Below, piece after piece: positions 1 to 21,169 of a DNA stretch of 64,000 bases (positions within the stretch are counted from its first letter, which is position 1; each line of letters begins with the position of its first letter). The notes below the pieces were generated by a model. The model had not been told where the DNA came from and ran no database searches. It worked only from the letters and a program-made list of their open reading frames with translations. Both the position numbers and the translations under genes were made by a program. Source of the stretch: Chamaesiphon sp. (GTDB lineage: Bacteria > Cyanobacteriota > Cyanobacteriia > Cyanobacteriales > Chamaesiphonaceae); contig CBDFFH010000009.1 in assembly GCA_965246715.1 (NCBI GenBank), forward strand, positions 32,001 to 96,000. The letters are read 5' to 3'.

Positions 1-756
1 AGGCAATGGTTTCAGACTCGATCCCACCAGCGGACAATGGGAACCGCCAGCCAATAAAACCGACCCACAAACGAATATTCAAGCTGATATTCATCTCACA
101 GTCAAAGCGACTACTAATCTACTCTCGATCGAACCATTAGATCTACCAGAACACGAGCGAGAGTCATTCATCACAACCTTCCAATACGCCTTAGAGCGAT
201 CGATTCAAACAGTATACAAGCTCGAACAATCCGAACTAGATTCCGAACGGCTGGGGCAAAATAGCGACCGCTTACTATTCTGGGAAGCGGCGGAAGGTGG
301 CGCGGGAGTTCTCTCCCAAATCGCCATACAATTGGAGATTTCTTGAATCGATTACGGGGGAGTAAATTAGAGCGGCACTCGATTGGGTTATCTCGCGAAC
401 AGCAATATCAAAAACTACTAGCCAAAACCGATCCCAATTCTGAGTTTGAACGGGTGGTATTAACAGCGATGTTCGATCGAGGGTTGAAATTACCCGATAC
501 TGCTCAAATGTATATTCCTGAAGCCAACTGCAAACCAGATTTTGTCTATAACAATGGTGTCAAAATTGCGATTTTCTGCGACGGTTCGGTTCATGATTCA
601 CCAGAACGAAAACGACAAGATAAGATCGATCGGGATAATTTGCAGTATGTAGTCGGTTACTCGGTGTTATCGATTCGGCAAAGCCGACGCGATGCGATCG
701 GTTATGAAGAGGAGTTAGAGTTGGGATTGCAACATTTGGCAGCTCTATTGGCGTAA
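1..756 (+). pseudogene. 3' end of DEAD/DEAH helicase with DUF1998 (MZB) region and C-terminal DUF559/Vsr-like nuclease domain; internal deletion and frameshift near 320
   Basis: Frame +2 (2-346) reads ...YALERSIQTVYKLEQSEL..LLFWEAAEGGAGVLSQI then stops. ORF 343-756 has KPDFVY..IAIFCDGSVHD (PD-(D/E)xK/Vsr-like). The Cys-rich segment expected between them is absent. Confidence 0.7.
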
Positions 757-880: not shown

Positions 881-1435
881 CTATGAATAATTCGGCATCT
901 TCGCACGATCCGTAGTAATCTCATCCACAATCGGATAGAGATAATCGGGATGAACCAGGTGCAGTGCCAACCAATAAGGATCGGGCGATCGCATACCCAC
1001 TAGCCGATCGCAATAATAGAGATCGGCAGAGCGGCGCAGATAACCGATGCGTAGATCGAGATGGCAGACTTCAACGGCAATTTCACCGTCTTTTGCTCCT
1101 GGCGCGTCGTCATAAACATCGAGCCAGTTCAAAGATAAGTTGATGCGATCGCAAACCCACTCTGGTTCTAGTCCTTGGAGATCGGGCAGCGGTAACGGTT
1201 GGAAATAGCGGCGCATCGAAGTCGAGGTTTCCTCGACTTTGTGTGCGACAAGACAGCGGTGGGAAAGATTGCGAACGGCATCGTGGCACTCGGCGGTACT
1301 AGGATGATGACCGCGTACCACTTTAGTCAAGCTGTTACCACAAAAGAAGCGATTCTCCAGGGGAGAGGCTACGCCAACGCGATCTAAATGACGTGCCATC
1401 GGACAATCTAAGCAATTTGAGGGTAGTGCTGTCAT
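881..1435 (-). CDS. hypothetical protein with CxxC...C...H..C metal-binding-like N-terminus; contains in-frame 24-nt insertion
   Basis: ORF 184 aa with CLDCP..FFC..HH...CH; VGVASPLEN comes from the insertion at 1354-1377. Confidence 0.55.
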   Translation of the reverse strand: MTALPSNCLDCPMARHLDRVGVASPLENRFFCGNSLTKVVRGHHPSTAECHDAVRNLSHRCLVAHKVEETSTSMRRYFQPLPLPDLQGLEPEWVCDRINLSLNWLDVYDDAPGAKDGEIAVEVCHLDLRIGYLRRSADLYYCDRLVGMRSPDPYWLALHLVHPDYLYPIVDEITTDRAKMPNYS

Positions 1436-1683: not shown

Positions 1684-1837
1684 GATGGTTATAAATAAAT
1701 GAACGAGGTAGCACAATTTCACTTGTGCTACCTCGTTTAGATGCGGCTATGCCGCCCAATAAATTAGTTAACTCCTCGTCCGAGAAGCTCGAATTAACAA
1801 AATGGGAACTCGGAAGATCGCCTTAGAGTAAAGTGGT

Positions 1838-2068
1838 AATTTTATCGTCAGTATCGTCAGCCGAGCGTGATTCTCCACCAAAAACTAGTCAGGGCAACGC
1901 TCTTGGGGCTGACGATAATGCTGACGATATTTTAATGGCTGACGATATTGACGGTAAGGCTGACGATATTTTCAATGGCTGACGATCGGACTAAAGATAT
2001 CGTCAGCCATCGAACGACATAACAGCAGTGGGTTTCAAGGTTGGCTGACGATACTGACGATAAAAATT
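1838..2068. repeat. iteron-like array of CTGACGATA (about 10 copies, both orientations) bounded by a ~25 bp inverted repeat; putative origin remnant
   Basis: Copies at 1843(rc), 1852(rc), 1909, 1921, 1939, 1960, 1979 (1 mismatch), 1998(rc), 2045, 2054; aattttatcgtcagtatcgtcagcc vs ggctgacgatactgacgataaaaatt. Confidence 0.8.
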
Positions 2069-2252
2069 CCTGCTCGACCTGTTCTAATAATCGTCCGCGC
2101 TGATTTAAAATTGGGAATTTAGTCAGGTAAGCGACAAAAGTGCCAACCTCAAGCAGCAACACGCTGGAAACCTGACAAGCTGGATCGAGTTTGTGGCGGG
2201 TTGAGACTGGCGATCGAAGATCTATTTATTAGTAAAATGTCACATCGAACGA

Positions 2253-5200
2253 TTACCTCCGGTAGGCTTCGCCAACGATATTTTCAGTTGGCGATCGTTC
2301 TACTACGATAGAATTCTTCGCTCTATTAACGGGTACGATTACAGTAGGTTCTTGAGCTATAGATATAGAGGGAGTTTCAATTATTTCTTGTTCGGGCACA
2401 GGAATTTCTACAACCCAATGAGAAAAATCATCCGGTGCGCGATCGCCATCGGGGTAAACGTCATTGAGCAGTACTCCCAAGCTCTTTATCTCTGCCATCT
2501 TCGCAACATCTCCAGCCAGCTCCGAAGCTTGATAGAGCTGCGGCAGCTCTCCTGCTGTTGGCAAGTAGCGTCGCTGTGATGAAGGGGCTGGATCGACCCG
2601 CTCCAGTGGTGTAGATTGCTGCGGTAGTGGCATGAGTTCCCCGCGTTCGCGAAGCGCGCCGAGGCGGTCGATACTGGCGACAGGCTGATGGTCGATGAGG
2701 GATCGAACTTGAATCTCAAGAATTTTCTCGTTCGAGCCACGCGATAACGTTCCTTTGAGTAGATGAGTGCCACTGTTGAGCTTGGCTTTGGACTCTTTAT
2801 TGATTAACTCTCGACCTAGCAACCCGATCGGTATCCGTCGTCCCCCAGAACCAAGATAATCGGCTGAAATCTCCTTGCCCTGACGATTGAATGCAAACTT
2901 ACCTGTAAAGTCTTCGATCTGAATCTGGCTAATAGCGGGATTAGGATTGACAACAAATTCTCCTAGCTCGGTGCGGATGTGAATTTTCAGATCGAGGGGT
3001 CGAACGATTTTAGCAGCTACCACCGTGCCAGGAGCCAGCAGCGGTGAGTCGCCATAAGTACTCAGACCCAAGTCGATCGTGCGGCCATCTGGTTCGATCG
3101 CGCTCACACGTAAATCGCGCTCGAATCTAATTGCCAGTTCCGCTCCATCTCGTAACTCTAACGCTGCTGCCATAGGACGATTGAGCGCCATCGGCGGTAC
3201 GTTATCCAGGTGTTGGCTAATTTCGTTAGCAAAGATTTTGGTAGCCATGCCCATCCCCGCGCTGGAATGCCATGCGGCAGACACATACTGTATTCGCTTG
3301 TCATTGGCAATGTTTTCCAGTTTGCTCAGTACCTTATCTGCACTAGCAAATACCGCATCGACATCGTTTTCTAGAGTAAAGGGTGGATGAAATTCGAGCG
3401 TCGATCTGGTAATTCTCGATACAGTCGATCCTGAATTTGCCCGATCGCCCTAGTACAATTACGATATTGCCGAGCGAACTCGTCTACGACTGCTTTTTGA
3501 TCGTCATTATGAGTAATCGGTATCAGCGAGCGAAACCGTTTGTTTAAATCTTCTGATTCGATTTCTTGTAATTCATGCTGCTGCCCACCATTGTAAAATC
3601 GGTTGGCAGTCTCCACCGCCCAACCGATCGGCTCTTGAGTATTCGTGGGGAGGTCGCGGGTGAGGTAAATATCGGGCTTTTTGACATTCTGACGGAGTTG
3701 GTGAGACTTGTACTGAATGCGTTCGCCAAATTCGTGAATAGTTTCATCGATCCCAACGCTGCTTTTGGCTGTATCGACAGCAGTTTGCAGGTTTTTTGCC
3801 ACCGCACTGTCACAATAGCCTTTGAGAAGCCGATTGACACTACCTAAATTCTGCTCGGCAAATGCCAGTCGCTCTGCCGCTGGGAATTTATCGAGCTGTT
3901 TACTCGCCTGGACGATCTTCTCGATCTTCTCTGCTAGCTGCATTGGGGGCAACCCACGCTCGACTAGATACTCATCGCTGGGAATCTCTTCAATTGAAAT
4001 CTCACTATAAGCTGCGCCAACTTGCTTGAGCAAACCGATCTTCCGCTTCGGTTCGATGTAGACTGTTTCGGATGCGAGGGATTGTAAGATTATCGACTGG
4101 TTGGCAACTTTGCCCGTCGGGTTGTTAGCAGTAATATCCCAGGCTCGCCAAATAGCTTGAGTTAGTGACTCGCCTTCATGCCAAAGGTGGTCTGCTTTTT
4201 TGGCTTTGGCGATTCTCCAAGGGAGAGGCTTCGCCAACGGTAACGGCTTGCGATCGGGAGTATTAGCTTCGATAAATTCCTTAACTGACAGCGGAAATTT
4301 CCCGCGTTCTAAATCTGGCTGAAGGATTATTTGAGCGATAATATCTCTACCTGCTTCATACCGATTGCTACCTGTAAGGGGTAAATTGCCTAACTGCTCG
4401 CGGAGTTGGTGGGGGAGATTATCATTTGCTAGATAACCGACGAAGAAACCATTGCGATCGCCATCAAAATCGGTAATTGCAATGTGTTTTGCTGTCCAGG
4501 GATTCAGATAGACTACGCCGCGTTTATCGAAGGCTTCGGGGTCGCGATCGCGCAACACTTCTAAGTTATTAATCGCAATCGCCGCAGCACCGACATTGGG
4601 AAAGGGCGATCGATAGTAATCAATGATCGCGCCGTGGGGTAAGTCACGATTGCAGATCTCCCAAGGTTCCAGCTTGCTATGGTGCTGGGCGATCGCAGCG
4701 GGGACGACGATTCCACTAGTCGCTACATCCAACCTGTCGCGCCTGAGCGATTTGTTAAGCTGGCGGCTGATATTTGGCATGGTTGAGCTGTCCGTACTTG
4801 TCAGCTTTGAGCAGCGCGGCAAGTGTCGATCGATTGTTGCGCGGTTCGTCATCGTCTACACCATCGATTCCTTCCGGCGTGTCGATAACTAACTCGCGAT
4901 CGCGTCTTGCTTCTTCTTTTGCTACGAATTTAGCTGCCACCTGCCAATTGTCGATCGCAACATCGGCAAGTTCGGCGGCTTTGGCTGCCATTATCGGATT
5001 GAGTTCGTTAAGAGTTGCCTCTGGAATCGTACTCTTGACTTGGGCACCCACTGATTGATTGGAATACTCGGCTTTAATTTTCCGATTGATCCACCAAAAA
5101 CTCTCTAATTCTAAGATTCCTGGCTGCTTGAGTCTGCCGTCATCGCCCTTGATGTCGTTGGTTGAGACGATCGCATCCACACCCAATCGTTCGCACCAGG

Positions 5201-6107
5201 AGCTAGTAGCTACAGTCCCTTTAGCAATTCCAGGTAAATCTGGCGTGGCGGCACGAAATTGTAGTACGGCACTCCGAGCGATCCTGTCGATCTTTTTCTC
5301 GATTGTTTGGGCAGTTTGCAAATCTACAAAATAGTTGGCGATTCTGCCCGTATGCTTGAATTCTTCCAGCAACTTTCCGGCTAATTCTGGATCTAAACTA
5401 TCGCCGAATGCTACATCGTTGGCGAAGCCTCTCCTTTGGAGAATCCACTCGCCCAAGTCACCTAGCTCGTCATCATTAATATCTTCGGTCTGTTGCAATC
5501 CACGATCTATGGCAAGTAAAACCTCTTTATCCAACAACAGCCCGCGCAAGAGCTGAGTCGATGCCAACATCGTCCCGTCGCCCATTTTGTCGTAGAGAGC
5601 GTCTAGCTGTTTGGTAGAAATTTTGCGCCCATCGCGGTCTATGAGTGGAGCTGCACCACTCGCTCTTTGCTCGTCATCGATAATCAAGATTCGAGTATTG
5701 CCCGATTTTGTCTGAGCCGCAGCTTTCCCGTCGCTGACGATTAGCGAACCATAAGCAACTGCATTGTGGGCACTGCGCTTACCGTCTGCGTAAATTGGTC
5801 GAACACCACGGCTACTGTCGCCTTTGGCAATTAATTCGGCAGTAAGTCGATCTGTGAAATATCCAGACTTACCACTGGTACAGATCAAATATTTGCCTTT
5901 GGCTTCCAAGCGAAGGCGATCTGAGTCATTGACTCCGTTATAAAAGTTAGCTACATGTAAACTTCGTGGCCCGATCCGATGCGTCTGGAGCCACTTTTCT
6001 AAATAGCAGTTCTCGATCGATTTCAACTTTGGCGTTCGCTTGCCCTCTGGATTAAAGTCGGTGAGGTGTTTACCAGTCTTTAAGTCAAATTCTTGGAACT
6101 GAAGCAT
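2253..6107 (-). pseudogene. large single-subunit two-barrel RNA polymerase (RdRP/QDE-1/YonO-like), split by frameshifts at ~4780 and ~3400 into ORFs 4755-6107, 3371-4852 and 2253-~3400
   Basis: Ordered RdRP-like motifs: MGDGTM, VLQFR..PGIAKG, IVSTNDIKG, YYRSP, ITDFDGD (4457-4471), TGKVAN, TAVDTAKS. Confidence 0.75.
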
Positions 6108-6119
6108 GAAATTCGGTTC

Positions 6120-6452
6120 CTAAAAAGGAATTCTTTCTACATCGTTGTCGGATTCATTCTGTATAAAGATAGTAGGAGGTCTAGATACAGCTTTTTGCTT
6201 ATTCCCCTTCGTATAGTAAGACTCAGGAATATCGTCGATATCGATGCCGTTGGCAAGCATATCACCTAAATTGTCATAGTCTTCATGTCGATACGATCGC
6301 TCGTATGCCCATCCTTCCATGTCAACTTCAGCCATTAGTTTCTCATCCTCAATATTTTGAGCTTCTTCTTCCTCGGTGTAGGTGCGTGGTGGCGGTGGGA
6401 TGATATCGCCTTCTTTGTAGAAAATGTCTTCGATCGAATTTATTTTAACCAC
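6120..6452 (-). CDS. small acidic protein directly upstream of the polymerase-like gene; ends in DNDVERIPF
   Basis: ORF 110 aa, D/E-rich, 12 bp gap to the next gene. Confidence 0.6.
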   Translation of the reverse strand: MVKINSIEDIFYKEGDIIPPPPRTYTEEEEAQNIEDEKLMAEVDMEGWAYERSYRHEDYDNLGDMLANGIDIDDIPESYYTKGNKQKAVSRPPTIFIQNESDNDVERIPF

Positions 6453-8300: not shown

Positions 8301-8615
8301 TTACGATCGAGCGGTAGTTGGCAAACTGATACGATCTATATTGTTGTGAAACTTCCACTTATTTGCCTTTTCCCAAGCTTCCTCAAACTCGTGGCGGTCG
8401 ATCTTATGCTCCTCTTTTATTTTGAGCCGAGACAGAGACTGATCGCACATCCGCAACTTGTCTTTCATGCTACTTTCGGCTCCACAAGAAAACCATTCTT
8501 GCTTATCTGGGTATTGTTCGACCTGTCGATTAGCCCAGTCATCAATGAACTCAATATACTGAACGATCCTTTTCCCTGGTTGCTCTACCGTGAATTTATA
8601 ATACTGAGTAGTCAT
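8301..8615 (-). CDS. small hypothetical protein, putative immunity/antitoxin of the upstream ART
   Basis: 104 aa, 33 bp downstream of the ART gene; C-terminal IDRHEFEEAW. Confidence 0.55.
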   Translation of the reverse strand: MTTQYYKFTVEQPGKRIVQYIEFIDDWANRQVEQYPDKQEWFSCGAESSMKDKLRMCDQSLSRLKIKEEHKIDRHEFEEAWEKANKWKFHNNIDRISLPTTARS

Positions 8616-8648
8616 AAAATTATTGTGTTTATATTTTTTATGTATAGA

Positions 8649-9969: not shown

Positions 9970-11073
9970 ATGAATGAGCCAAAAAAGCGGGGACGACCGC
10001 GAAAGGATGGTGAATCAGAACAGCCGGAATTGGCAATTTCAAACGGTTATCCAGATTTCCTTGACGTTATCGAGAAGTATCTGGCTGAAGCCAAGTGGAC
10101 TAAACGAGAGTTGATGACAGCGATCGGTTTTGGCGAGACACAACTATATCGTTGGAGTCGTGGCGAGAGCGTCCCACGCAAAGCAACGGTTAATCGAATC
10201 GCCATTCAACTGGCAAATAGGCTAGATGCGATTTATGGCAATCGTCTGAACGATCCCTCTCCAGCAACAGATGCGATCGATAGCTTGCTCAACGAGTTAC
10301 TGGGAGCCGCCGGATTTGCTGCTTCGGTTAGAGGTATCACTGGTGATGATTGCTGGAACAAAATCGCTCAGAATCAATGCTGGACACTGGGCTATACAAT
10401 GGTTTCAGAGTTGGCTATCCCACCAGAACGACGTGGTGGTAAGCCCACAGGAAAAGCTATAGAGTACGCCGAAACGATCGGACGATTACTAGGAATAGAA
10501 ACTCTCTGGGAATATCTTGACTTCAACGTCATGCCAGGTGCGATCAGGCAAAGACAAGTCGATGGCATTGCTCCAATTATGTTGGTGCTGCCAGGAAGAT
10601 TATTCGACTACAGTTTTTCAAATCGATGTAGTGAGACACCCTTCACTTTGACAGCGATCTCCGATCGTCAGCTTATTGATGGTGCCGATTGTTTGGAAGC
10701 CCTGCCAGCAAATAAAGTCGAGCTACTTTTTGTAAAGGGTGAGTTGGGTGATTGGGGTGCAAGTGTCTTATCTAACAAGTATCTTCTCAGACAGAGTTTT
10801 GCTAATGCTGACGAGGCGATTAGTTATATGCAGGGGTTAATCGAGCGGCAGGAGTTAGACAAAATACCCGTATTACTCATTGACAATAGCACTGGCGGAT
10901 ATCTAGTCGATCGAGAAAATGATAGAGGTCAACCTAAGCTATTGCAGATTGAAATCAAAAGCGTCAACCTAACAACGTTTAATTCTTTTGCATTTCATCC
11001 AGATGAGAAAATGCTGGTTAATGCAGTCAACCAGTCCATTCCACTTACTCCATATATTCAAATCAAAAACTAG
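9970..11073 (+). CDS. XRE-type HTH regulator fused to a family-3 substrate-binding domain
   Basis: KKRGRPRK AT-hook-like; WTKRELMTAIGFGETQLYRWSRGESVP HTH; PTGKAIEYAETIGRLLG...AIRQRQVDGI..YSFS SBP-like; no signal peptide. Confidence 0.75.
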   Translation: MNEPKKRGRPRKDGESEQPELAISNGYPDFLDVIEKYLAEAKWTKRELMTAIGFGETQLYRWSRGESVPRKATVNRIAIQLANRLDAIYGNRLNDPSPATDAIDSLLNELLGAAGFAASVRGITGDDCWNKIAQNQCWTLGYTMVSELAIPPERRGGKPTGKAIEYAETIGRLLGIETLWEYLDFNVMPGAIRQRQVDGIAPIMLVLPGRLFDYSFSNRCSETPFTLTAISDRQLIDGADCLEALPANKVELLFVKGELGDWGASVLSNKYLLRQSFANADEAISYMQGLIERQELDKIPVLLIDNSTGGYLVDRENDRGQPKLLQIEIKSVNLTTFNSFAFHPDEKMLVNAVNQSIPLTPYIQIKN

Positions 11074-11084
11074 AGGGTAACAAA

Positions 11085-11777
11085 ATGAGCCAGCAGATCG
11101 ACATTCAAGAGCTAATTTCACTGATCCTAAATTCCGAGAAGCTATTTATAAACACCAAGATTCGTGAAGAATTGATTGCATGTATCTTGAATTCAAGTAA
11201 ATTGGTTGAATTTGGTGAAGGCTTTTACTTCATTAGACATGATTTTTGCAAGCTAAATTTCATAGTTGGTGCAAGATGTTCTAATGATGAAATGCTCTGG
11301 TCTGGCTTGGCTAAGAATTTAGTGGAAGAGCTAGGCGGCAAGAGCGGTATCAGTCACAACAAACTCTATTGTGACTTTCTAAAGTCTATTGGAGCCAAAA
11401 CGGAAAATGAATTAGACTGCCCTACCTTCGCTCAAGAATTTAATGATCGCTGGGAAGAATTTGCTAGAACCGCCCCTCTAATGGAGGCTTTATCGGCAAT
11501 AGCTATCTACGAAATTTTTGACGTTCCAGATTACCAGATGTTTTTAGAAATACTAGAACGAGCGAAAGTACCAAAAGAAGGACTAATATTCTTCAGGGTT
11601 CATGCAAATGCTCACCACTTTGAAATGTTTGAAGATACGGTAGCTTGGATACTCACTCAAGAAAGTGGTCAAGAAGCATTCGATCGAGCCAAAGATTTTG
11701 TATTTGATACTCAAAGAAAAATGTGGATTGGCCTAACAGAATTCCTCCAGTCAAAACAATTAGTAGCCGCAAATTAA
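11085..11777 (+). CDS. heme-oxygenase-like diiron redox enzyme (TenA/PqqC/CADD/BesC superfamily)
   Basis: NLVEELGG..SHNKLYCDFL...AIYEIFD...FFRVHANAHH: E/H/E/H/H ligand pattern. Confidence 0.75.
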   Translation: MSQQIDIQELISLILNSEKLFINTKIREELIACILNSSKLVEFGEGFYFIRHDFCKLNFIVGARCSNDEMLWSGLAKNLVEELGGKSGISHNKLYCDFLKSIGAKTENELDCPTFAQEFNDRWEEFARTAPLMEALSAIAIYEIFDVPDYQMFLEILERAKVPKEGLIFFRVHANAHHFEMFEDTVAWILTQESGQEAFDRAKDFVFDTQRKMWIGLTEFLQSKQLVAAN

Positions 11778-11799
11778 AATCTAAAACGGGAGAGATAGA

Positions 11800-12672
11800 A
11801 TGTTAAAAAAATCACTGCTCAGGTATGTATTGCTAGGGTTGTCCCTATTTAGCGTACTCATCTTTAATTTAGCTGGATGCACCAATAGTAATGTGGCACC
11901 TCCCACAGCTACTGCTAGTGCCTCCGTCATGGATCGGGTAGCAACCGATAGCAAAGTCAAAATCGGCTACTTAGTCTTCCCGCCAGCGATTACCAAAAAT
12001 CAAACTAGTGGCGAAATTGGCGGACATCTAATCGATACCATCAAAGAGATTGCCCGACTCAGTAAATGGACACCTGAGTTTGTCGAAACAGATTGGGCGG
12101 GATTTACAACGGGATTAGATTCTGGTCGGTTTGATATTTCCGTCGTGCCAACCTTTGTGACAGTCCCTAGAGCATTATCCATCTACTTTACCAAACCACT
12201 ATTCTTCGCTGGTAACAGTGCGATCGTCCGTGCTGGTGAAACTAAAATTACCACCCTTGCCAGCATCGACAAACCCGAAATTAGAGTCGCCGTCACCCAA
12301 GGTGAAGCGGGGGATGAATACGCTAAGGCAAACTTTAAAAAAGCGAAGATTACCAGCTTTCCAGGTAGCGATCAATCCGCCGCATTCCAAGCTGTAGTCG
12401 CTGGACGCGCCGATATTGCCTTGGGGGATGCTTATGCTACCGCTCAGTTCGCCAAAGCCAATGCAGCCAAGGTCAAAGACCTATTTGCCGCTAATCCCTA
12501 TAACCTCACCCCCGTATCCTGGGCAGTGAGAAAGGGCGACGACAAATTACTCAACTTCCTCAATAGCAGCATTGAAGCCCTCGATTATCAGGGACGCTTA
12601 CGCGAGTTCGAGCAAAAAGCAGGTGCTAACTGGTTGCACCCTAAAAAAGTCTTGGAATTCACTAAAGGCTAA
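11800..12672 (+). CDS. polar amino-acid ABC transporter substrate-binding lipoprotein
   Basis: Lipobox LAGC; GLDSGRFDI, FTKP, AVVAGRADIAL, AVRKGD. Confidence 0.9.
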   Translation: MLKKSLLRYVLLGLSLFSVLIFNLAGCTNSNVAPPTATASASVMDRVATDSKVKIGYLVFPPAITKNQTSGEIGGHLIDTIKEIARLSKWTPEFVETDWAGFTTGLDSGRFDISVVPTFVTVPRALSIYFTKPLFFAGNSAIVRAGETKITTLASIDKPEIRVAVTQGEAGDEYAKANFKKAKITSFPGSDQSAAFQAVVAGRADIALGDAYATAQFAKANAAKVKDLFAANPYNLTPVSWAVRKGDDKLLNFLNSSIEALDYQGRLREFEQKAGANWLHPKKVLEFTKG

Positions 12673-12678
12673 AACCTC

Positions 12679-13353
12679 ATGGGCTGGAACTTTGCGGTCA
12701 TGTGGAATAGTTTTCTACCCCTGTGCCTTGCCATGCTCACCACCATTTGGATTAGCATTGGCACGATTGCCATCGGCACGACTTTAGGGGTGCTGCTGGG
12801 GATTCTATCCCTCACCTCAAATCAATTTGCCTCCAGACTCGCACAGGCATTTATCGAACTATTCCTCGCCCTCCCAGCCCTAGTGATTCTCGTCTGGCTC
12901 TACTATAGTTTGCCGCTGATTTTCCCTGGCTTCATCTTGAGTGGCGATGCCTGTGCTGTGCTGGGGTTAGGATTGAGTTTATCCGCCTTCGTTGCCGACA
13001 TTATCCGAGGTGGCATCAACGCCATCCCCCCAGGGGAACTGGAAGTTGCCTACTGTACGGGAATGACTCGGCTCCAAGCAATTCGCTACATCCTCATCCC
13101 CCAAGTCCTCCAGCGATCTTGGCTGCCGCTGATGGGGCAATATATCACCACCTACAAATTTTCGACCCTAGCATCAGTCATCGCCGTTCCCGAAATCCTG
13201 CATACAGCTAATGCAATCATCGCTCAAACCTATCGCCCATTAGAGATTTACTCGATCGTCGCCTTCATGTTCGTCATCACAATTATGCCGCTCAACCTGC
13301 TCCTCCGCAGACTTCAGCGAGTGAGCAACCTTGGTGGCATGGAGAAAATATAG
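12679..13353 (+). CDS. polar amino-acid ABC permease (HisM/GlnP-like)
   Basis: ADIIRGGINAIPPGELEVAYCTGMT..IRYILIPQ EAA-like loop. Confidence 0.9.
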   Translation: MGWNFAVMWNSFLPLCLAMLTTIWISIGTIAIGTTLGVLLGILSLTSNQFASRLAQAFIELFLALPALVILVWLYYSLPLIFPGFILSGDACAVLGLGLSLSAFVADIIRGGINAIPPGELEVAYCTGMTRLQAIRYILIPQVLQRSWLPLMGQYITTYKFSTLASVIAVPEILHTANAIIAQTYRPLEIYSIVAFMFVITIMPLNLLLRRLQRVSNLGGMEKI

Positions 13354-13358
13354 TCCCT

Positions 13359-14039
13359 ATGGCAGAAGTACTCCTCCGACTCGAAAACATCCAAAAAAAA
13401 ATCGCTGGCAATACGATCCTCGATAACGTTAGCTTGACACTCGATCGCGGTGAAAGTCTGCTAATTCGCGGTAAGAGCGGCTGCGGCAAAACCACACTGC
13501 TCAGATGTATCGCCCTGCTAGAACAGATCGATCGAGGACAAATCCTGTTCGATGGCAAGGTAGTATCTGAGAAGGGTGTACTCGATCGCACCAAGTACAA
13601 GCCCGAAATCGGGATGGTATTCCAGCAACTCTACCTCTGGCCGCATCTAACCGTCTTAGATAATGTCTCCCTCCCCCTCCATTTGCGCCAAGGCGGACAC
13701 AAAAAACTAGCTGACGGGCTGGCGATCGAAAAACTATTCCAACTCGGCGTAATCGGCAAAGAAACCGCCTATCCCCATCAACTCTCCGGCGGACAAAGAC
13801 AACGAGTTGCCCTCGCCAGAGCCTTAGTCCATTCCCCCAGCCTCCTCCTCCTCGATGAAATCACCGCCAACCTCGATCCCGAAACCGCCAGCGTCGTCCT
13901 CGAACTCGTCGAAAAAATTATCCTCTCCGGTACCACCGTCATCATGATTTCCCACCTACCCGTCACCTCTTCCGTCTGGATGTACGAACTAAACGCCAGC
14001 AACTGGGAGTTGGAAAAAAGACAACAGCGCAATAGCTGA
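13359..14039 (+). CDS. polar amino-acid ABC ATPase (GlnQ-like)
   Basis: GKSGCGKTT, LSGGQRQR, LLLDEIT. Confidence 0.92.
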   Translation: MAEVLLRLENIQKKIAGNTILDNVSLTLDRGESLLIRGKSGCGKTTLLRCIALLEQIDRGQILFDGKVVSEKGVLDRTKYKPEIGMVFQQLYLWPHLTVLDNVSLPLHLRQGGHKKLADGLAIEKLFQLGVIGKETAYPHQLSGGQRQRVALARALVHSPSLLLLDEITANLDPETASVVLELVEKIILSGTTVIMISHLPVTSSVWMYELNASNWELEKRQQRNS

Positions 14040-14476
14040 AATTAATGAGTCCGCGCAATACTAATTTACAAAGGTATTTAACGGCGATCTTCCTGTTATT
14101 CCAAGATATATTCGACTGCTATTGGGCGGTTGAGGTAGTAATTTACCGATATCTCAGCTTCGTAACATGATACTTCTAGAAGCTAGAATGGGTATACTTG
14201 CTAGAGGAACCGCTTAAATTGCTTAGTTAAGTACACATTACTTCTCAATTCCCCAGGCTATGTGTAAAATTGAGGTAAGTTAATAATCTGTCAAAAAATA
14301 TATTTCATAAATATACATAAAAGATATACATTCTCAGTGACACATCCAAAACCTTGTGTACCTTTCGGGCAGAAGTTTTTAGTCATTGTATATATCTAAG
14401 CCACAGACCTAGTTATTATTTAATTAGTAAACATGTTCTTACATATTAAGCTTGAACGGTTTCCCATAGATGAACA

Positions 14477-15238
14477 ATGACATTCTCTAATCCACCGATT
14501 GTTGAAGCCATATTCCATGTAGTAGTAGAGCGTGACAGTGAATTTAATAATGAAACATTAAATGATTATGCTAAGTACATCACAGAAAAATTTCCTGCTT
14601 TCGATCGACAAGAACAAAGATTTCTAAAAAATGACATATCATTTCATTCTGACAATCCACACAACATAACTTCTTCTATTAGCAATATTTTACAAGGATA
14701 TCTTTTAGCATCCAATGATAACCCCAGAGTTATTCAAGCTAATATAGACAACTTCTCCTTTAGTAAATTGCCTCCTTATGGAACATGGGAATCATTCTAC
14801 AAAGAAGCAAATGAATTCTGGGAGAAATACGCTGAGATAACTTCAGTCGATCGAGTCAAACGCCTTGGATTACGCTATCTAAATCGGATTGAAATTCCTT
14901 TTGATAATAGATCTTTTAAGTTACGAGAATACATCAAGATATTCCCTGAAGTCACTGATGATTTATCAGTAACAATTTCTGGACACTTTATGCAAATGTC
15001 TCTTGACTCTGAGCTTTATAAACCGTCCAGAGCAATTGTAAATCAAGCAGTTGGCAATGTAGGCGATATGAAGTCCACTCCTTTAATATTTGATGTTGAA
15101 GTTTTTCAAGATGTAGACCTTACGCATCAAAACAATTCCAAAGAAATAGAATCAATTTTTATTAATAACTTACGAATATTCAAGAATAGTATATTCTTGA
15201 ATAGTATCACTGAAAAATCACAGGAGCTTTTCAAATGA
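14477..15238 (+). CDS. TIGR04255-family protein
   Basis: FSNPPIVEAIF..., PYGTWESF, VKRLGLRYLNRI, LIFDVEV, FLNSITE. Confidence 0.85.
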   Translation: MTFSNPPIVEAIFHVVVERDSEFNNETLNDYAKYITEKFPAFDRQEQRFLKNDISFHSDNPHNITSSISNILQGYLLASNDNPRVIQANIDNFSFSKLPPYGTWESFYKEANEFWEKYAEITSVDRVKRLGLRYLNRIEIPFDNRSFKLREYIKIFPEVTDDLSVTISGHFMQMSLDSELYKPSRAIVNQAVGNVGDMKSTPLIFDVEVFQDVDLTHQNNSKEIESIFINNLRIFKNSIFLNSITEKSQELFK

Positions 15239-15810
15239 TAGTTTCAGAACGTCAAACCATCGCAAAAAGTCCTATTCAAACAGTAACAAAATCAGGTAGT
15301 TACAATGTTATTGCAAGCTCTAGCAAAGGTGAAAGCTGCGAATACAAGCGAGTTGAAGCACAGATAAAGTGTCAAGATCGTACTGAGGTTGCTCACGTAC
15401 TTGAAAGTCCTGATGTTGCTGAATTAGAAAAAAGAGCAGAGGATTTAAGAGACTTATTACTTGAAAATCGTACTGCTTTGTCAGAGCAGGAAATGCGTCT
15501 ACTCAAAGGACTTTTTAATAGTAACAAGCAACTCATTGCTCTGAACAAAAAAACATCTCCATTAATTTTAGTAGCATTAGCAAGTCTTTTAGAGCCACTA
15601 ATTGAAAATCCTGCCTATGCTCAAGACATAGAGTCTATCGTCAAGAGCTTACTAAAATCACCATCAACAAGTTTAAGATATGCTGCTCTAGACATTATCA
15701 CTGCTGGATTAGGAATAGTTCCTGTTGCAGATTCATTACTAAAAGAAGCGAAAATATTGCTAAAAAATGAAGAGCCTGGGTATGTTCTCGAATACTTGGA
15801 GTCTCTTTAA
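15235..15810 (+). CDS. hypothetical protein, coupled to TIGR04255 (ATGA overlap); helical/HEAT-like C-terminus; candidate antitoxin
   Basis: ORF 191 aa, 4-nt overlap. Confidence 0.7.
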   Translation: MIVSERQTIAKSPIQTVTKSGSYNVIASSSKGESCEYKRVEAQIKCQDRTEVAHVLESPDVAELEKRAEDLRDLLLENRTALSEQEMRLLKGLFNSNKQLIALNKKTSPLILVALASLLEPLIENPAYAQDIESIVKSLLKSPSTSLRYAALDIITAGLGIVPVADSLLKEAKILLKNEEPGYVLEYLESL

Positions 15811-15813
15811 TTT

Positions 15814-17788
15814 GTGGAGCAATTTCTTTATTATCGAAGTTTGAGTAAAAGTGCAGATATCTGGAGAAAGGGGAAAAAAATCAGGTTCTACCGAACTTAC
15901 TATGCTAAATCAAGGATTGAAATGCCATGCTAGCAAACTTCTGATCTGAAAATTCTCAAAATTTCTAAACCCATATCCCATTCTTTTTATTAGCTTGAGT
16001 TTATTGTTAATTCCTTCGACGACTCCTTGAGTTGTTCTATTATCAAAATAGGCAATTATTTCACCAATCCATCTTTTAATAGTTCCACAACTCTTGGGGA
16101 ATTTCCCACAAGCATTCTTGAGCCAGTCACACAAGCTTATTAGCCCATTTCCCCAATCTGTTTTTGATTCAAATATATCTCTAAATAACTCTTTTGTTTT
16201 GTGCATTGCTGCTAATTCTGGAAAAACGTCTCCAATCTCTTTCAACTTCTCTTTTTGCAATTCATTCAAATCCGCTTCGTTTTTGAGTATTGCATATTTA
16301 CTGTGAGTTAATGCTGCTAATTTCTTGTTCTTTTCATCTTTGTTCTTCACCCTCTCAGCCTCTCTTTTGATTTTAATTCTCTCTCGATCTAACTCTTCAT
16401 TTATCTGTTTCATTACATGAAATCTGTCTCCAACCACTTCAGCATTTGGTATCAATTCATTTACCAGACTTTTGTATGATGAAAATAGATCGATACTTAC
16501 TTCTGTAATTTGGTTCAAAACCTCCGAACCCCAAGACTTCAAGCACTCACCAATACATTCTTGAGTCCTTTTTGGTAAGATGGCTATTAACTCTCTTTTT
16601 TCTAGATCTACTAACACCGCACAATAGTTTTTTTGCCCTTTAACAAAGGCAATTTCATCAATTCCTAGTCTGGTTAAATTCTCTGGCTTTTTTTGCACTA
16701 GATTTACCCCAGCTTTTTTGATTATTGTCTCCACTTCTTGCTCACTTAATCCATTTCTTTTGGCAACACTTTTAATATCACTAGCTAGACTCTCTTCGAC
16801 AATCTTCTGCTTCATTCGCTCGGTGAAATGACTTCTCTTTTTGATGAAATTTAATTCCTCACTGAATTTTCGACCACAACTCATACACTTGAATTGACGA
16901 CGATTAATTTTAAGGTAAACATCATGTTCACCGAATGGTAGATCTCTCACTGTTAATTGGTGATTCTCATGAAGTTTATTACTTTCAGTTCCACAATGAG
17001 GACACACTGCTTTTAATTGCTGATTTTCTAGATAAATAAAATAACCGATTTCATCTAAGATCTTATAAGCAGTGACGGTCATTCCGTCGATATTAAGAAT
17101 TTCATTAATGGTTTTTAGTTGCGATTTGGATGACATAATGCAATTCAAGCTTATTTGTTGCCAGAAATCAAGATCTTACTATTCTATAATAAAATCTGTC
17201 ATTTATGCTGCACCAAGCTTCCATAACTCAAAATTATCAATTTTGTCAATTAAACTTGATTCTTATCCACTACTTAGCATAGCAAGTTCGGTAGAGCCAA
17301 AAATCAAAGCTTTTCCCCCTGATGTTGAAAAAGAGACATACTTGAGCCACATGACAATGGGAAAAGGATTTCCTTCGATATGGATGTCATCAAACAATGA
17401 AGATCTAGAAAGAATTGCTCTTGGGCTTATGCTATGCAAAGGAAGTCTTGACAGGATAGAATTTGTCGGATTAAATCTATGCTGTTTTGAAAAAACACAA
17501 GTCAAAATTATCCAATCTTCTAATCCTCAATTTCCATTACCTTCGGTTGGCAATCTTCATCATGAATTACACAGCTATAATGACGACAATATTACCGAAT
17601 CAATTGAAATATTCCTATATTGCAATGGAAAGATCGAGAAATTTCCAAAAGTCTCGAATTCAGACACAGAGACAAGTATGCTAAACATAGCAAAGAAGTA
17701 TATCGATGAAATAAGTGGTGAAGTTTATATAAAGAAAGCTAGGGACTGGATTGAAAAATACGGAAAATCTCAAGTAACTGGGAATTAA
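15814..17788 (+). pseudogene. 183-aa putative ART/RES-fold toxin interrupted by ISL3
   Basis: Removing 15884-17306 rejoins MEQFLYYRSLSK...KKI/KAFPPD...PSIW..LERIALGL..LDRIEFV..NLHHEL in frame. Confidence 0.7.
15884..17298 (-). mobile_element. ISL3-family IS; transposase 15910-17148
   Basis: IRs ggttctaccgaacttactatgctaa / ggctctaccgaacttgctatgctaa; 8-bp TSD aaaaatca; GIDEIAF, DRFHV, EGINNKLKLIKR. Confidence 0.95.
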
Positions 17789-17847
17789 AAAAGACAGTTG
17801 AATTAAATGGAGTTATTTCTCGATCTACTATAGACGTTAGTAGATCT

Positions 17848-18364
17848 AGGACAAATCCTCTTCGATGGCAAAGTAGTATCAGAAAAAGGTGGACTCGATC
17901 GCGCCAAGCACAAACCAGAAATTGGCATGGTATTCCAGCAACTCTATCTATGGCCGCATCTAACCGTCTTAGATAATGTCTCCCTCCCCCTCCATCTACG
18001 CCAAGGCGGACACAAAAAAATAGCTGATGGACTCGCGATCGAAAAACTATCCCAACTCGGCGTAATCGGCAAAGAAACCGCCTATCTCCATCAACTCTCA
18101 TGCGGACAAAGACAGCGAGTCGCCCTAGCCAGAGCCTTAGTCCATTCCCCAAGTCTTCTCCTCCTCGATGAAATCACCGCCAACCTAGATCCCGAAACCA
18201 CCAGCGTCGTCCTCGAACTCGTCGAGAAAATTATCCTTTCCGGTACCACTTTCATCATGATTTCCCACCTGCCCGTCACATCTCCAGTCTGGATGTACGA
18301 ACTAAACGCCACCAACTGGACATTGGAAACAAGGCAACAGCATCAAGAATTTGAGAATCGATGA
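17848..18364 (+). pseudogene. diverged duplicate of the 3' two-thirds of the ABC ATPase gene (13535-14028)
   Basis: Near-identical protein without Walker A; signature changed to LSCGQ. Confidence 0.9.
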
Positions 18365-18697
18365 ATTAGCCTATCCAGGCATGGCAATTATCCCTGAAGG
18401 AGGGCGGATATTGAAATTCGTCGAAATCACCCAACAAGGCATCAGCATCGTGTTAGTAGAACAAAAGATTCATCCGAGTTTTATTAAGTGACAGCGACAT
18501 TGGCAATCGCCTCCCCTGTCACCGATCCGGAGAAATGAGAGTACGATATCGCGCTTTTTCGCTTTATAGTTATTTTAATTAAGAATGATACAACTACCGT
18601 TCAATCGAACCGCTGTTGACAATGGATTGAGCGAATCAGGCTGTCTCAAACTTATTTGGAATGACTATACCAAGGCAAAATAGCGATGCTGACAGCA

Positions 18698-19231
18698 TCA
18701 ACCCATCATCAATCTGATATCTTTGAGCAACTTATACATAGTCAGTGGCGATGCTGGAAATGGCTCGAACCCAAAATGACCATAAAACTTGCCCGCACTC
18801 TCATCTTTAGCATGAACGAGAATCGCCCTAATTCCAGCAATGTCAGCGGCATTTACGGTTCGACGCAAAGCGTCCAACAATAAACCTTGTCCGAGCTTTT
18901 GCCCTTGAAAACGATTATCTACAGCCAACCGCGCCAAAACCATCACGGGGATCGGGTAACGTGCCAACCCTTTACTCAACCCTTCAGGTGACTCAGAATG
19001 CGTGACTTCTCCCACCGTGAGGGTGTAATAACCAACCACCCGTTCGCCAATTAACGCCAGCCAAGTTTGGGCACTGTCTTTCTTCTGATTTTGGGATGCG
19101 TATCGGTGTAAAAACTGATTTAGTGCCTCTACCCCACAATCGAATTCGGCGATCGGTTGCCCAGATGTAAGTTTTTCGATCCGTGGCTGAGAATCGTCTG
19201 TGGCTATGGACATCGTTCGCGTAGCGTTCAC
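18698..19231 (-). CDS. GNAT acetyltransferase toxin (AtaT/TacT type)
   Basis: FDCGVEALNQFL, LARLAVD..FQGQKLG, FYGHFGF. Confidence 0.9.
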   Translation of the reverse strand: MNATRTMSIATDDSQPRIEKLTSGQPIAEFDCGVEALNQFLHRYASQNQKKDSAQTWLALIGERVVGYYTLTVGEVTHSESPEGLSKGLARYPIPVMVLARLAVDNRFQGQKLGQGLLLDALRRTVNAADIAGIRAILVHAKDESAGKFYGHFGFEPFPASPLTMYKLLKDIRLMMG

Positions 19232-19509
19232 TTTGTGAAATCGAACACACTGGGTGTATTTAGCAGTTGTTGCAGACGGGGATGAGTGCGAGGCGGAGCA
19301 TCAAGAGCTGCCTGGAAAGCATCCCATTGTTCATCGTTGAGACTAAATTGCCGCCGTTCGGCTAGGGTACTTTCTGCTTCTGTCAGAGCGGTATCCAGTA
19401 CGAATTCACTGAGGGTTTTATGACGAGATTGTGCCGCAGCCTGCAACAACCTCTTCGCAGTTGGGGAAAGGCGAATATCTAGCCTTTCTGCCCGTAAATT
19501 AGAAGACAT
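19228..19509 (-). CDS. DUF1778 RHH antitoxin
   Basis: ERLDIRLS..K.LLQAAA....TLSEFVL..; overlaps the toxin start. Confidence 0.9.
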   Translation of the reverse strand: MSSNLRAERLDIRLSPTAKRLLQAAAQSRHKTLSEFVLDTALTEAESTLAERRQFSLNDEQWDAFQAALDAPPRTHPRLQQLLNTPSVFDFTK

Positions 19510-19727
19510 ACTCGATCTCTCAGCTATTTAATCTTATTTTACCATAACGTGTGTACGTTGGCGACACAAACCCGATCGCTTGAAATCTTACAACTATGCC
19601 CTCACGAGCATAAAAGCGATTCGACAGCGGATGGAATCGCGCTGAGGCTCCCGCCTGCGGCACGTCTTCGCCTACAGCGTGCGTTCCACCAAGCAGAGCC
19701 GACGCTACGCGAACGAAATAACGAAGC

Positions 19728-20372
19728 TTAATAATGAAAAAAAGGTTGAAGTTGACAGAGCGTTGATAAAAGCTCGGCAACCTTAGCATTAGTATATCGA
19801 TCGGAACGGGGATAAATCAGACAACTGCGTATCTGTCGATTGCGATCTGTATAATTGAGTTTTTGAAGATCGATATCGGGTAGTCTAACTAGGGTATTTT
19901 TTTGACCGATCGTTTTTAGAGTCAGAGAATCGACCATAGTAAAAATTGTCTTCCAGATTTCTGCTGCGTAAGCTTGACTCAGTAAAAAACTATATTTTAA
20001 GTTCTTATACTTAGCAGTAAATCCTGCTACTAACGAAACAATCTTTTGTAACTCCCGATGACATGGGGGTAAAACCTGCCACCAGTGAGCGCGAGTATCG
20101 ATACTAAGAGGTAGACGTTCGAGATAAATATTAAATCTTACAGGATCGCACTCAGACACGATCGCGTGAACTTGGTGGTCACACATCAACTCATCTAATT
20201 GCCAATCTGCAATCGTGTCAAACATGTACCGTTGATATGAGGCTCCATAACACGTTAGCAGAGTTTGTAAGGCGCGATTCGGCAGAGCCGACGCTTCGCG
20301 AACGACTAATTCTCCTCCCGATGATACATAATGAATCAAGGTAAATACCCCGTATTCCGAAAAGATTGCCAA
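19728..20372 (-). CDS. hypothetical protein downstream of the ParA-like ATPase
   Basis: ORF 214 aa; in-frame 24-nt insertion at 20279-20302. Confidence 0.55.
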   Translation of the reverse strand: MAIFSEYGVFTLIHYVSSGGELVVREASALPNRALQTLLTCYGASYQRYMFDTIADWQLDELMCDHQVHAIVSECDPVRFNIYLERLPLSIDTRAHWWQVLPPCHRELQKIVSLVAGFTAKYKNLKYSFLLSQAYAAEIWKTIFTMVDSLTLKTIGQKNTLVRLPDIDLQKLNYTDRNRQIRSCLIYPRSDRYTNAKVAELLSTLCQLQPFFHY

Positions 20373-21169
20373 TTATCCTCCAACCATTTATCTATTTTAA
20401 GTTTCACGATCGGATTGAGTTGCTTCCCTTGCTGATATCCATTCTTGACAATTTCATGTAACGGAGTACCGAGATCTACAGCTTCAAGAATTGCCGGATC
20501 TGCAAGCCAGGGCAGGATGTTAGCAATTTTAACTTTACTATCCTGCGAAAATTTGTCTAGCAGAGGTAACGGATCGAATCTATCCCAGTTAGGAACCGCA
20601 CTAGTAATTCCTAAGTTAAATACACATACATGCTGAATATTTGGATATTTGGTGACAAAATCGACGAACATCTGCTGGGAAGTACCGCTCCCAAAGCTAC
20701 ACCACCAATTTACAACTTTAAACGGTGACGATTCGCTCGCCATTAGCCCATTAATATTATTACTGTCCAGCCAAAGTTCGATCCCATCATTTGCTGGTAG
20801 AGAGACGATAATATCTTGCTTCAATCCATAGATAATATCCAATAATCGATCGCCTAAATAGCTAAACTTAGCATCTTTAGAGAAGATAATTTGTTCGCTC
20901 ATCAGATTTGAATCTACTTGCAATTTAAGTTCTTCTTTATCTGCTAACGATCGACCGAAGCGACTGCCGATTCCCAAAAGGGGACGCTCCGCGATCGAGC
21001 TGACCAAGGACTTAACATCCTTGTGTTGCCAAAGAGCCACGGTTTCTTTATCATAAGCACGAGCTACATTATAATTAGGATCGGCATCAATTAATGTAAA
21101 CGATCGCCCCAGCTCGATCGACCGTTCGCAAAACAGACGTGCGAGAGTAGATTTCCCCACTCCCCCTAA
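20336..21169 (-). pseudogene. ParA/MobD-like P-loop ATPase, 5' end removed at the IS5 junction
   Basis: GGVGKSTLAR..LIDADP; the frame runs into the IS end. Confidence 0.7.

Follow-up and report, generated by a model that had tools for sequence, protein, structure and literature searches.

A broken gene for a predicted two-barrel, RdRP/YonO-like polymerase in the probable chromosomal remnant of a conjugative element of Chamaesiphon sp.

Does a cyanobacterial gene whose motifs recall the polymerases of eukaryotic RNA interference still encode an enzyme, and what might such an enzyme do in a mobile element? Bacterial relatives of the eukaryotic RNAi polymerases have posed a puzzle since 2010, and in the literature that we found the assayed ones are phage members only. 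A preliminary description of a 64,000-nucleotide stretch of Chamaesiphon sp. DNA (the window) proposed a hidden polymerase of this type, which overstates its novelty since YonO/RdRP-like proteins of cyanobacteria had already been predicted between 2010 and 2012 (Ruprich-Robert and Thuriaux 2010, PMC2919709; Aravind et al. 2012, PMC3417536, which cites Iyer and Aravind 2011). In the passages at hand, those proteins match the present family by description, as single-chain two-barrel proteins of cyanobacterial selfish elements with invariant active-site residues and RNase H fusions among homologues, and a primase role is proposed for them; the window copy differs in being broken and in having no RNase H. 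The same passages mention neither a conjugative setting nor an acidic partner nor an array derived from a Rep gene. The description also held that such proteins had been predicted but were functionally uncharacterised, in agreement with our literature search, made mostly without subscription papers, which brought up no experiments on the cyanobacterial family. Our additions are the acidic gene as a conserved partner family, the array as the 3' end of a Rep gene, and the relaxase/T4SS and ssb/ardC/radC/DUF932 context.

The three open reading frames that were thought to form one gene were confirmed on the minus strand, with their motifs in the order given: MGDGTM (5568-5585), VLQFRAA (5247-5267), IAKGT (5214-5228) and IVSTNDIKG (5145-5171) in the first half, followed by YYRSP (4604-4618), DFDGD (4457-4471), TGKVAN (4100-4117) and AVDTAKS (3761-3781) in the second. 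Two lesions separate the pieces.

4755..6107, minus strand: polymerase piece 1, 450 aa, in the true frame to ~4781; N-terminal part and first-barrel motifs DG, QxR, K and K
4779..4781, minus strand: lesion 1, a 2-bp deletion between both barrel regions, absent from 8/8 aligned relatives
3371..4852, minus strand: polymerase piece 2, 493 aa, in the true frame over ~4779-3408; carries the second barrel, including R-x-P, DFDGD, TGKVAN and V-D-x-x-K
3407..3409, minus strand: lesion 2, the junction of a 310-334-bp deletion, scored against four relatives
2253..3284, minus strand: polymerase piece 3, 343 aa, open in frame from 3449; helical and beta domains of the C-terminal part, with a low-confidence tail

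Joined, the pieces amount to 1,283 codons, close to the ~1,280 described, but they are not the whole gene: the second break is a deletion rather than a simple frameshift to be repaired, so that the intact gene would have ~1,385 codons, and intact relatives have 1,355-1,479. The missing stretch corresponds to an inserted beta-rich domain (approximately residues 897-1005 of an intact relative). An assembly artefact is ruled out as the cause of the breaks, as contigs of public reads bridge both lesions with zero differences (lesion 1 in runs X1 and X2, the latter spanning this lesion only, at depth 2; lesion 2 in run X1). Run X1 may be the source sample, and its bridging therefore proves that the reads hold the lesions, not that they occur a second time. 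A programmed frameshift at lesion 1 is likewise ruled out by the eight relatives without it. The window copy is thus a recently broken pseudogene with two real deletions, and not the working RNA polymerase or primase first supposed.

The nature of the family is therefore best read from intact relatives. An AlphaFold model of one of these (pLDDT 89, pTM 0.88) is predicted to hold two double-psi beta-barrels in one chain, in a QDE-1/RDR2-like fold. Its best Foldseek matches were RDR2 (E 5e-9), QDE-1 (1.3e-7), phi14:2 gp66 (1e-5) and P74 gp62 (6e-5), and its VIA Z scores were 15.6 against P74 gp62 (512 residues aligned, rmsd 4.7), 15.4 against QDE-1 (568, rmsd 4.6) and 14.6 against RDR2 (605, rmsd 6.2), the first non-polymerase row standing at Z 7.3. 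Specifically, model residues 1/31-1077 align with QDE-1, RDR2 and P74 gp62 (Z 14.6-15.6), while isolated DPBB proteins match residues 468-559. A fold search with the C-terminal beta domains found no match above background, which is no proof of a new fold. QDE-1 of Neurospora and RDR2 of maize and Arabidopsis (Pfam PF05183) are the best structural matches over ~570-600 residues and share Q-x-R, K..K (24 apart), R-x-P, D-x-D-G-D and V-D-x-x-K with the family, which differs from QDE-1 and RDR2 in its 8-12% identity, the lack of a Pfam match, its setting in a bacterial mobile element and its extra beta domains. Phage enzymes are also structural matches, namely phi14:2 gp66 and gp62, gp64 and gp96 of Thermus phage P23-45/P74 (Z 15.6, 12.2, 7.1).

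Conserved residues, together with these fold matches, support the two-barrel RdRP/YonO-like assignment at the level of a model. D177, Q283, R285, K296, K320, R500, P502, D547/549/551, D771 and K774 are kept in 178-190 of 191 homologues, in an order that matches QDE-1 D709, Q736, R738, K743, K767, R962, P964, D1007/9/11, D1116 and K1119, a pairing that rests on motif order and spacing. All eight invariant two-barrel residues (QDE-1 D709, R738, K743, R962, P964, D1007, D1009 and D1011) have counterparts (D177, R285, K296, R500, P502, D547, D549 and D551). Within the DFDGD motif, the expected conservation holds for the catalytic aspartates of the DxDxD triad (190, 190 and 189 of 191) but not for the glycine position, which is G in 120, R in 31, S in 20 and K in 15. 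The suggested PF05183 (RdRP) search gave no support, matching neither the three window pieces nor the intact relative P0003, with the best of 31 homologues scanned (a single one) reaching 22.5 bits against a curated cut-off of 23.8; Pfam, PHROGs and PDB sequence searches with the intact relative also returned nothing.

Homologues occur in 52/401 genomes of the phylum, where intact relatives are under purifying selection (dN/dS ~0.07-0.27), and some are fused to other domains: RNase H in 4 of 31 scanned, and elsewhere SLOG, RepB-primase-C or DUF4326. Members of the family sit in integrative conjugative elements and on plasmids. In two near-complete genomes, 3/4 chromosomal copies are broken and 2/2 small-replicon copies are intact. 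As to expression, one RNA run contained 5% of the words and divergent pieces only, from which no conclusion is drawn.

An intact gene lies immediately upstream.

6120..6452, minus strand: small acidic protein gene, intact, 110 aa, pI ~4.2, 25% D+E, 12 bp upstream of the polymerase start

The acidic partner noted in the preliminary description has a homologue on the same strand, no more than 600 bp upstream of the polymerase, in 32/36 loci, carries the motif L-x-x-G-x-x-x-D and evolves at dN/dS 0.05-0.37 (15 pairs); judged by this conservation of sequence and position, it is a partner family of the polymerase. It accompanies the polymerase in 0/10 loci of a distant clade, and an ESM Atlas search with the acidic protein gave no usable match. 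An intact pair is found on plasmid pLBX of Leptolyngbya boryana (WP_017291803.1 with WP_017291804.1).

What remains of the surrounding element is fragmentary.

881..1435, minus strand: conserved element gene with no function assigned, 184 aa, which opens a DUF5895-ssb-like-DUF932 module in relatives
9970..19547, no strand given: cargo common to the related element in genome G020, including a regulator, an iron redox enzyme and an ABC-type transporter
19728..21160, minus strand: two conserved element genes, one of 214 aa with no assigned function and one ParA-like without its first 54 codons

Window positions 942-21172 are collinear with the element in genome G020, a full one in the order tRNA-integrase-Rep-TrwC-...-polymerase-...-VirD4-VirB4, which unites an integrase at a tRNA, a relaxase, a coupling protein and VirB4. 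The window element has lost both arms, with no att repeat found to bound it, and the VirB4-VirD4 gene run that the 214-aa and ParA-like genes close in relatives is missing. Moreover, the 159-kb contig carries three tRNAs and a tmRNA, along with rpsN, mnmA, hemE and fpg, which we take to be housekeeping genes. The gene is therefore element-encoded, as proposed, but the locus is chromosomal, not a plasmid, and is probably what is left of an integrative conjugative element. Among loci of at least 15 kb, a relaxase or T4SS gene lies within 20 kb of the polymerase in 25/42, against 5.5% for their own genome, with no such marker at the window copy or at 17/42 of these long loci; ssb/ardC/radC/DUF932 genes are near it in 28/54 loci, on the same strand in 26/28. 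These loci are related and their counts not independent. The polymerase may follow the T4SS run, sit among ssb/ardC/radC genes or stand beside the relaxase, so neither a leading region nor a transfer operon is its constant address.

We hypothesize that intact relatives are DNA-templated RNA polymerases that work on the element's single-stranded DNA while it passes to a new cell or shortly afterwards, a reading toward which the evidence leans slightly. Ribonucleotide use is suggested by the residues matching QDE-1 R962 and D1116, the template would be DNA, and both QDE-1 and phi14:2 gp66 use ssDNA templates. By analogy with Sog/TraC primases and virion polymerases, the RNA product would serve to prime second-strand synthesis or as the first transcripts in the recipient. 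As far as the available text of PMC5512222 goes, Sog/TraC-type proteins move across at conjugation and prime the incoming strand, and these primases and other polyvalent proteins resemble the present family as large element proteins with ArdC/MPTase and RadC neighbours; the Sog/TraC primases have Toprim or Primpol folds, unlike the present family, and the RNA polymerases among polyvalent proteins are N4-type only, in phages. The gp66, gp62, gp64 and gp96 enzymes are likewise phage proteins, virion-packaged or early, whereas the present family belongs to a conjugative element; gp66 is brought in together with DNA and favours ssDNA, and its non-glycine DFDID resembles the DFD[RKS]D variants of the family. 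The polymerase gene would be dispensable once the element no longer moves, which fits repeated decay on chromosomes. Counting against this explanation, the elements carry DUF3854 Reps, which have been suggested to be Toprim-related, so a primase may already be present.

A fuller version, in which a QDE-1-like polymerase is sent into the recipient by the secretion system, primes or transcribes the incoming strand and is curbed in the donor by the acidic protein, is possible but distinctly more tentative. Export by the element's own secretion system is faintly suggested by a relaxase-like tail, with similarity to the cognate relaxase at p = 0.06 (20 pairs) and a C-terminal R in 57/167 homologues vs 90/1,307 genome ORFs; a tail profile search found no other element protein with E <0.6. 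The putative role of the acidic protein would be to bind the polymerase in the donor and either stabilise it or keep it inactive.

A YonO-like transcriptase is somewhat doubtful: in the donor it would read specific double-stranded promoters of the element, ahead of transfer or establishment genes, and the acidic protein would serve it as regulator or specificity factor. YonO, from the SPbeta prophage of Bacillus (PMC5467207), belongs by description to the same single-chain two-barrel family with an aspartate triad, and, as the closest tested bacterial relative, its activity as a processive DNA-dependent RNA polymerase for late genes is a point against the ssDNA-transfer reading. The extra C-terminal beta domains could bind promoters, and the polymerase gene is often co-directional with element operons. 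YonO differs in being a ~100-kDa phage protein; for the present family, viral contigs gave 205 pattern matches, of which 0 were confirmed as relatives. Against a transcriptase, fusions to RNase H or primase-C are suggestive of RNA-DNA hybrids and of priming; the closest solved folds include ssDNA-preferring enzymes; and no element-specific promoter emerged from promoter scans, which stayed at chance level.

The sequence downstream of the polymerase bears on whether it could instead be a vegetative primase or initiator of the element, working at an adjacent repeat array.

1775..2135, plus strand: orphan 3' end copied from a DUF3854 (CyRepA-type) Rep gene, now non-coding and iteron-like
1702..1737, minus strand: 15-bp perfect hairpin with a T-rich tail, a terminator-like consensus match downstream of polymerase and array

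The iteron-like repeats reported here are real: ten CTGACGAT units, some direct and some inverted (~1835-2070), with 36-nt inverted arms (1835-1870 and 2035-2070), forming the sole cluster of at least three CTGACGAT in the 6.1-Mb genome. The array adjoins the polymerase in 11 loci, with constant orientation in the 8 aligned, which together with the primase role proposed in the available part of PMC3417536 speaks for an initiator. Such arrays nevertheless lie inside DUF3854 Rep genes in 7/18 loci examined, and the window array is a detached copy of the 3' end of such a gene, hence no sign that the polymerase is a Rep or has its own origin there. Its homologues are the 3' ends of CyRepA (DUF3854) genes from the same genus, and it differs from them in being detached and non-coding, as judged from the portion of PMC10079941 at hand; kinship with CyRepX was set apart by description, the CyRepX paper describing helicase-like proteins. 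No such cluster adjoins the intact copies L029, L030, L032, L033 and L035, the elements encode their own Rep, and the adjacency may reflect shared descent within one genus, all of which makes an initiator improbable. The orphan arrays may have one origin; they never formed a single clade across 200 bootstrap trees. The array's single-strand folding (z -7.5) follows from the inverted repeats and is not evidence for an ssDNA promoter.

There is similarly little likelihood of an RNA-templated or conflict enzyme, making dsRNA or decoy RNA or draining nucleotides against host defences or rival elements, with the acidic protein as antitoxin: the fold closest to eukaryotic RdRPs, the SLOG and DUF4326 fusions, the anti-restriction neighbours and the tight two-gene arrangement would suit it, against which stand the absence of RNAi-type partners among neighbours scanned and the distant clade lacking the acidic gene. 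Residual function of the window copy, as an enzyme split into two subunits, is hardly credible, even with lesion 1 between the barrels, an ATG at the break (4780-4778) starting MPNISRQ in frame with piece 2, every catalytic motif intact and a dN/dS of ~0.1 for the pieces, as lesion 2 deletes a domain, the neck partner helix is left without a start codon, other broken copies have their break sites elsewhere and a low dN/dS is expected after recent breakage.

The comparison removes a false lead, the nearby array coming from a Rep gene, and offers testable handles on the family in the conjugative context, the acidic partner gene, the DFD[G/R/K/S]D variants and the intact pair of pLBX. If the fuller reading of a polymerase sent into the recipient is true, the family would give virion RNA polymerases their conjugative counterpart and offer, in bacteria, a model of the ancestor from which RNAi polymerases arose.

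Three minus-strand ORFs, in which the preliminary description recognised a single gene, carry polymerase-type motifs in the order claimed:

4755-6107, minus strand: piece 1
3371-4852, minus strand: piece 2
2253-3284, minus strand: piece 3

They do form one gene, although the window copy is interrupted. Alignment of its DNA with eight relatives places a 2-bp deletion at about 4780; near 3408, four of the eight were used to score a second deletion, of 310-334 bp. Most relatives of piece 2, which is matched in 10/41 genomes (8/24 within the genus, with up to four copies per genome), have one uninterrupted frame of 1,355-1,479 codons. The nearest named homologues are also from Chamaesiphon (84-88% identity). 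A Pfam scan of the three ORFs returned no match at E up to 0.1. Contigs from a public read run that is possibly the source sample (X1) span both lesions with zero differences (3325-3458 and 4745-4900, depth 9-10), and a second run, X2, spans the first (depth 2). Since read contigs bridge these sites without difference, the lesions are present in the reads. With comparisons to the saturated locus L033 excluded, dN/dS per piece was 0.07-0.27 against eight close intact genes and 0.10-0.21 between intact pairs; because each piece resembles the intact pairs, these ratios point to recent breakage. Other copies are broken at different sites: L021 has a 129-bp insertion, L022 a transposase, and L034 and L123 other splits. 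In two three-contig genomes, broken copies were 3/4 of those on the largest contig and intact copies 2/2 of those on smaller contigs, though these numbers are small. A dispersed repeat of some 24 bp, similar to the short dispersed repeats of cyanobacteria, forms in-frame inserts in the gene (4209-4241 and 5414-5443; peptide LAKPLPWRIA) and recurs at its 3' end (about 2254-2280) and elsewhere in the genome, including within another ORF, with many loose ends in read contigs.

The predicted RdRP/YonO-like two-barrel fold was supported by the model of an intact relative. This AlphaFold2 model (P0003, residues 1-1100), built from 61 sequences, reached pLDDT 89 and pTM 0.88; its top Foldseek matches were RDR2, QDE-1, phi14:2 gp66 and Thermus phage polymerases, a viral structure library returned phage RdRP-like and crAss-type proteins, and a wide VIA search gave Z scores of 15.6 (P74 gp62), 15.4 (QDE-1), 14.6 (RDR2) and 12.2 (gp96). 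For the C-terminal beta domains, structure searches gave nothing clear. Homologue searches yielded 232 and 122 matches, and residues were counted in the 191 sequences of at least 700 residues, shorter ones being dropped and four being our own translations that duplicate database entries. The DFDGD motif held in its aspartates (D547, D549 and D551 in 190, 190 and 189 of 191) but not in its glycine (G in 120, R in 31, S in 20, K in 15). Other residues were retained as follows, misses being mostly alignment gaps: D177 in 178, Q283 in 179, R285 in 178, K296 and K320 in 182 each, R500 in 189, P502 in 190, D771 in 186 and K774 in 189. DFDRD, DFDKD or DFDSD replaces the motif in 66/191 sequences, homologues P0059-P0128 of a Leptolyngbya-type clade, and DFDID is reported to support activity in phage gp66. 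By motif-based mapping rather than superposition, family residues follow Q736/R738, K743/K767, R962/P964, the triad and V1115/D1116/K1119 in published accounts of QDE-1, with the same lysine spacing of 24. R962 and D1116 are described there as favouring ribonucleotides and, since their counterparts are kept, the likely product of the intact enzyme would be RNA. A domain scan of 31 homologues found RNase H in 4, cpYpsA SLOG in 2, a RepB-primase C-terminal domain in 1 and a sub-threshold PF05183 match in 1.

The acidic ORF suggested as a partner (6120-6452, minus strand) is intact and lies 12 bp upstream of the polymerase. Its family, with the motif L-x-x-G-x-x-x-D, spans several genera, and in 32/36 loci a profile found a co-oriented member no more than 600 bp upstream of the polymerase. 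Of the 32, 25 were in the training set; of the 11 held-out loci, 7 matched at E < 1e-14. The opposite strand of the loci gave nothing under E 2, and the own genome has a single match. Weak matches precede the L034, L035 and pLBX polymerase genes, and the gene is absent from 10/10 loci of a distant polymerase clade.

Downstream, the array (units at about 1835-2070) is iteron-like in design, as first proposed, but belongs to Rep, namely the 3' end of DUF3854 genes. It is the sole cluster of CTGACGAT among 711 genome occurrences, and its design recurs, built from a variant unit, as the 3' end of DUF3854 Rep genes on the window's contig, C9. A genus search found the design in 12/27 genomes. Among 18 further array loci, a Rep gene contains the array in 7 (the unit being identical in 6 of them); in 10 the array stands apart from Rep, next to the polymerase or the acidic gene, and 1 locus is unassigned. 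Rep-embedded arrays are open frames, and the window array and several other orphans contain stops and indels. Position varies: in some elements the array follows the polymerase, in others it precedes the acidic gene, and its orientation relative to the polymerase was constant in the 8 aligned; five intact polymerase copies showed no adjoining array cluster. An orphan array may be a relic, may act as a second origin or may serve as an incompatibility decoy. C9 1-16834 and 95172-103366 hold two element arms integrated at tRNA genes (Pro, Thr), both with a DUF3854 Rep and TrwC and each Rep having its own unit (GGACGAT, CAGACGAT). On contig C27 (1-24754), a second polymerase copy, truncated by the contig end, comes first and adjoins a T4SS run; C27 may form one element with the start of C9. 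A TrwC relaxase-DUF3854 fusion (L156:6355-11157) occurs on plasmid-sized contigs near distant polymerase homologues.

That the gene is element-encoded is upheld by collinearity of window 942-21172, cargo included, with the middle of a full integrative conjugative element in genome G020, ordered tRNA-Val, integrase, DUF3854 Rep, TrwC, ParM-like, DUF932, ssb-like, DUF5895, array, polymerase, acidic gene, cargo, ParA-like, VirD4 and VirB4. The ParM, VirB4 and VirB6 labels of the Chamaesiphon genes are tentative assignments, in part by similarity, rather than direct Pfam matches. Both arms are absent beside the window copy, and C9 (159 kb of a 6.1-Mb genome, with the window at 32001-96000) bears three tRNAs, one tmRNA and ORFs that we take to be housekeeping genes; the locus is therefore a chromosomal remnant rather than the plasmid-like element initially envisaged. 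Neighbouring features are:

8301-9056, minus strand: ORF with a Tox-ART-HYD1 ADP-ribosyltransferase domain (E 2e-9)
9970-14039, plus strand: cargo cluster shared with the G020 element (HTH and solute-binding regulator, iron-containing redox enzyme (Haem_oxygenas_2), ABC-type transporter)
C9 28396-32756 (window 1-756 and upstream), several ORFs: DEAD-box helicase with Helicase_C, MrfA zinc-binding and REase-like pieces

The first, together with the 104-aa ORF after it, resembles a bacterial toxin-tip/immunity pair; the cargo ATPase gene has a partial duplicate at 17927-18364; and the split helicase adjoins an AbiE toxin-antitoxin pair and methylase fragments. Polymerase matches occur in 52/401 genomes of the phylum and 18 plasmid records, all cyanobacterial, with no relative confirmed in the viral contigs searched. 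The neighbourhood survey covered 54 loci (one short locus, L111, excluded) with a small marker set, so that a miss does not equal absence, and related loci are not independent. A relaxase or T4SS marker lay within 20 kb in 25/42 loci of at least 15 kb, versus 5.5% of the own genome, and ssb, ardC, radC or DUF932 lay near the polymerase in 28/54 (same strand in 26/28); with this small set, the window locus itself had no relaxase/T4SS marker within 20 kb.

We hypothesize, somewhat in favour, that the intact polymerase would make RNA on the transferred single strand: the nearest solved relatives are reported to synthesise RNA on ssDNA, the fusions point to RNA-DNA hybrids, and the neighbours are transfer and establishment genes. 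Published accounts also describe conjugative elements as transferring primases, with the incoming strand primed with RNA. The main rival, a YonO-like transcriptase, seems a doubtful reading by comparison, and a vegetative role is unlikely because the elements already own a Rep. Export of the polymerase through the secretion system is only hinted at by its tail. A C-terminal arginine ends 57/167 homologues versus 90/1,307 genome ORFs, and tails of this general type can serve as secretion signals; similarity to the cognate relaxase gave p = 0.06, and a tail profile search found no other substrate. A polymerase-like V-x-(L/I/V)-P motif with polar tail, a possible common export signal that is not significant by profile, ends a HipA-like kinase, a TrwC relaxase and an unknown element protein (L030:8239-9453, L029:7940-10699, L036:7149-8804).

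Proteins of the YonO/RdRP-like type have been in print for cyanobacteria since 2010 (PMC2919709), and a 2012 account (PMC3417536) places them in selfish elements, with a possible primase role, and notes fusions to RNase H; our literature searches found no experimental study of the cyanobacterial family. The window gene is a broken new member of this predicted family; the useful additions are the family of its acidic partner and the descent of the array from a Rep gene.
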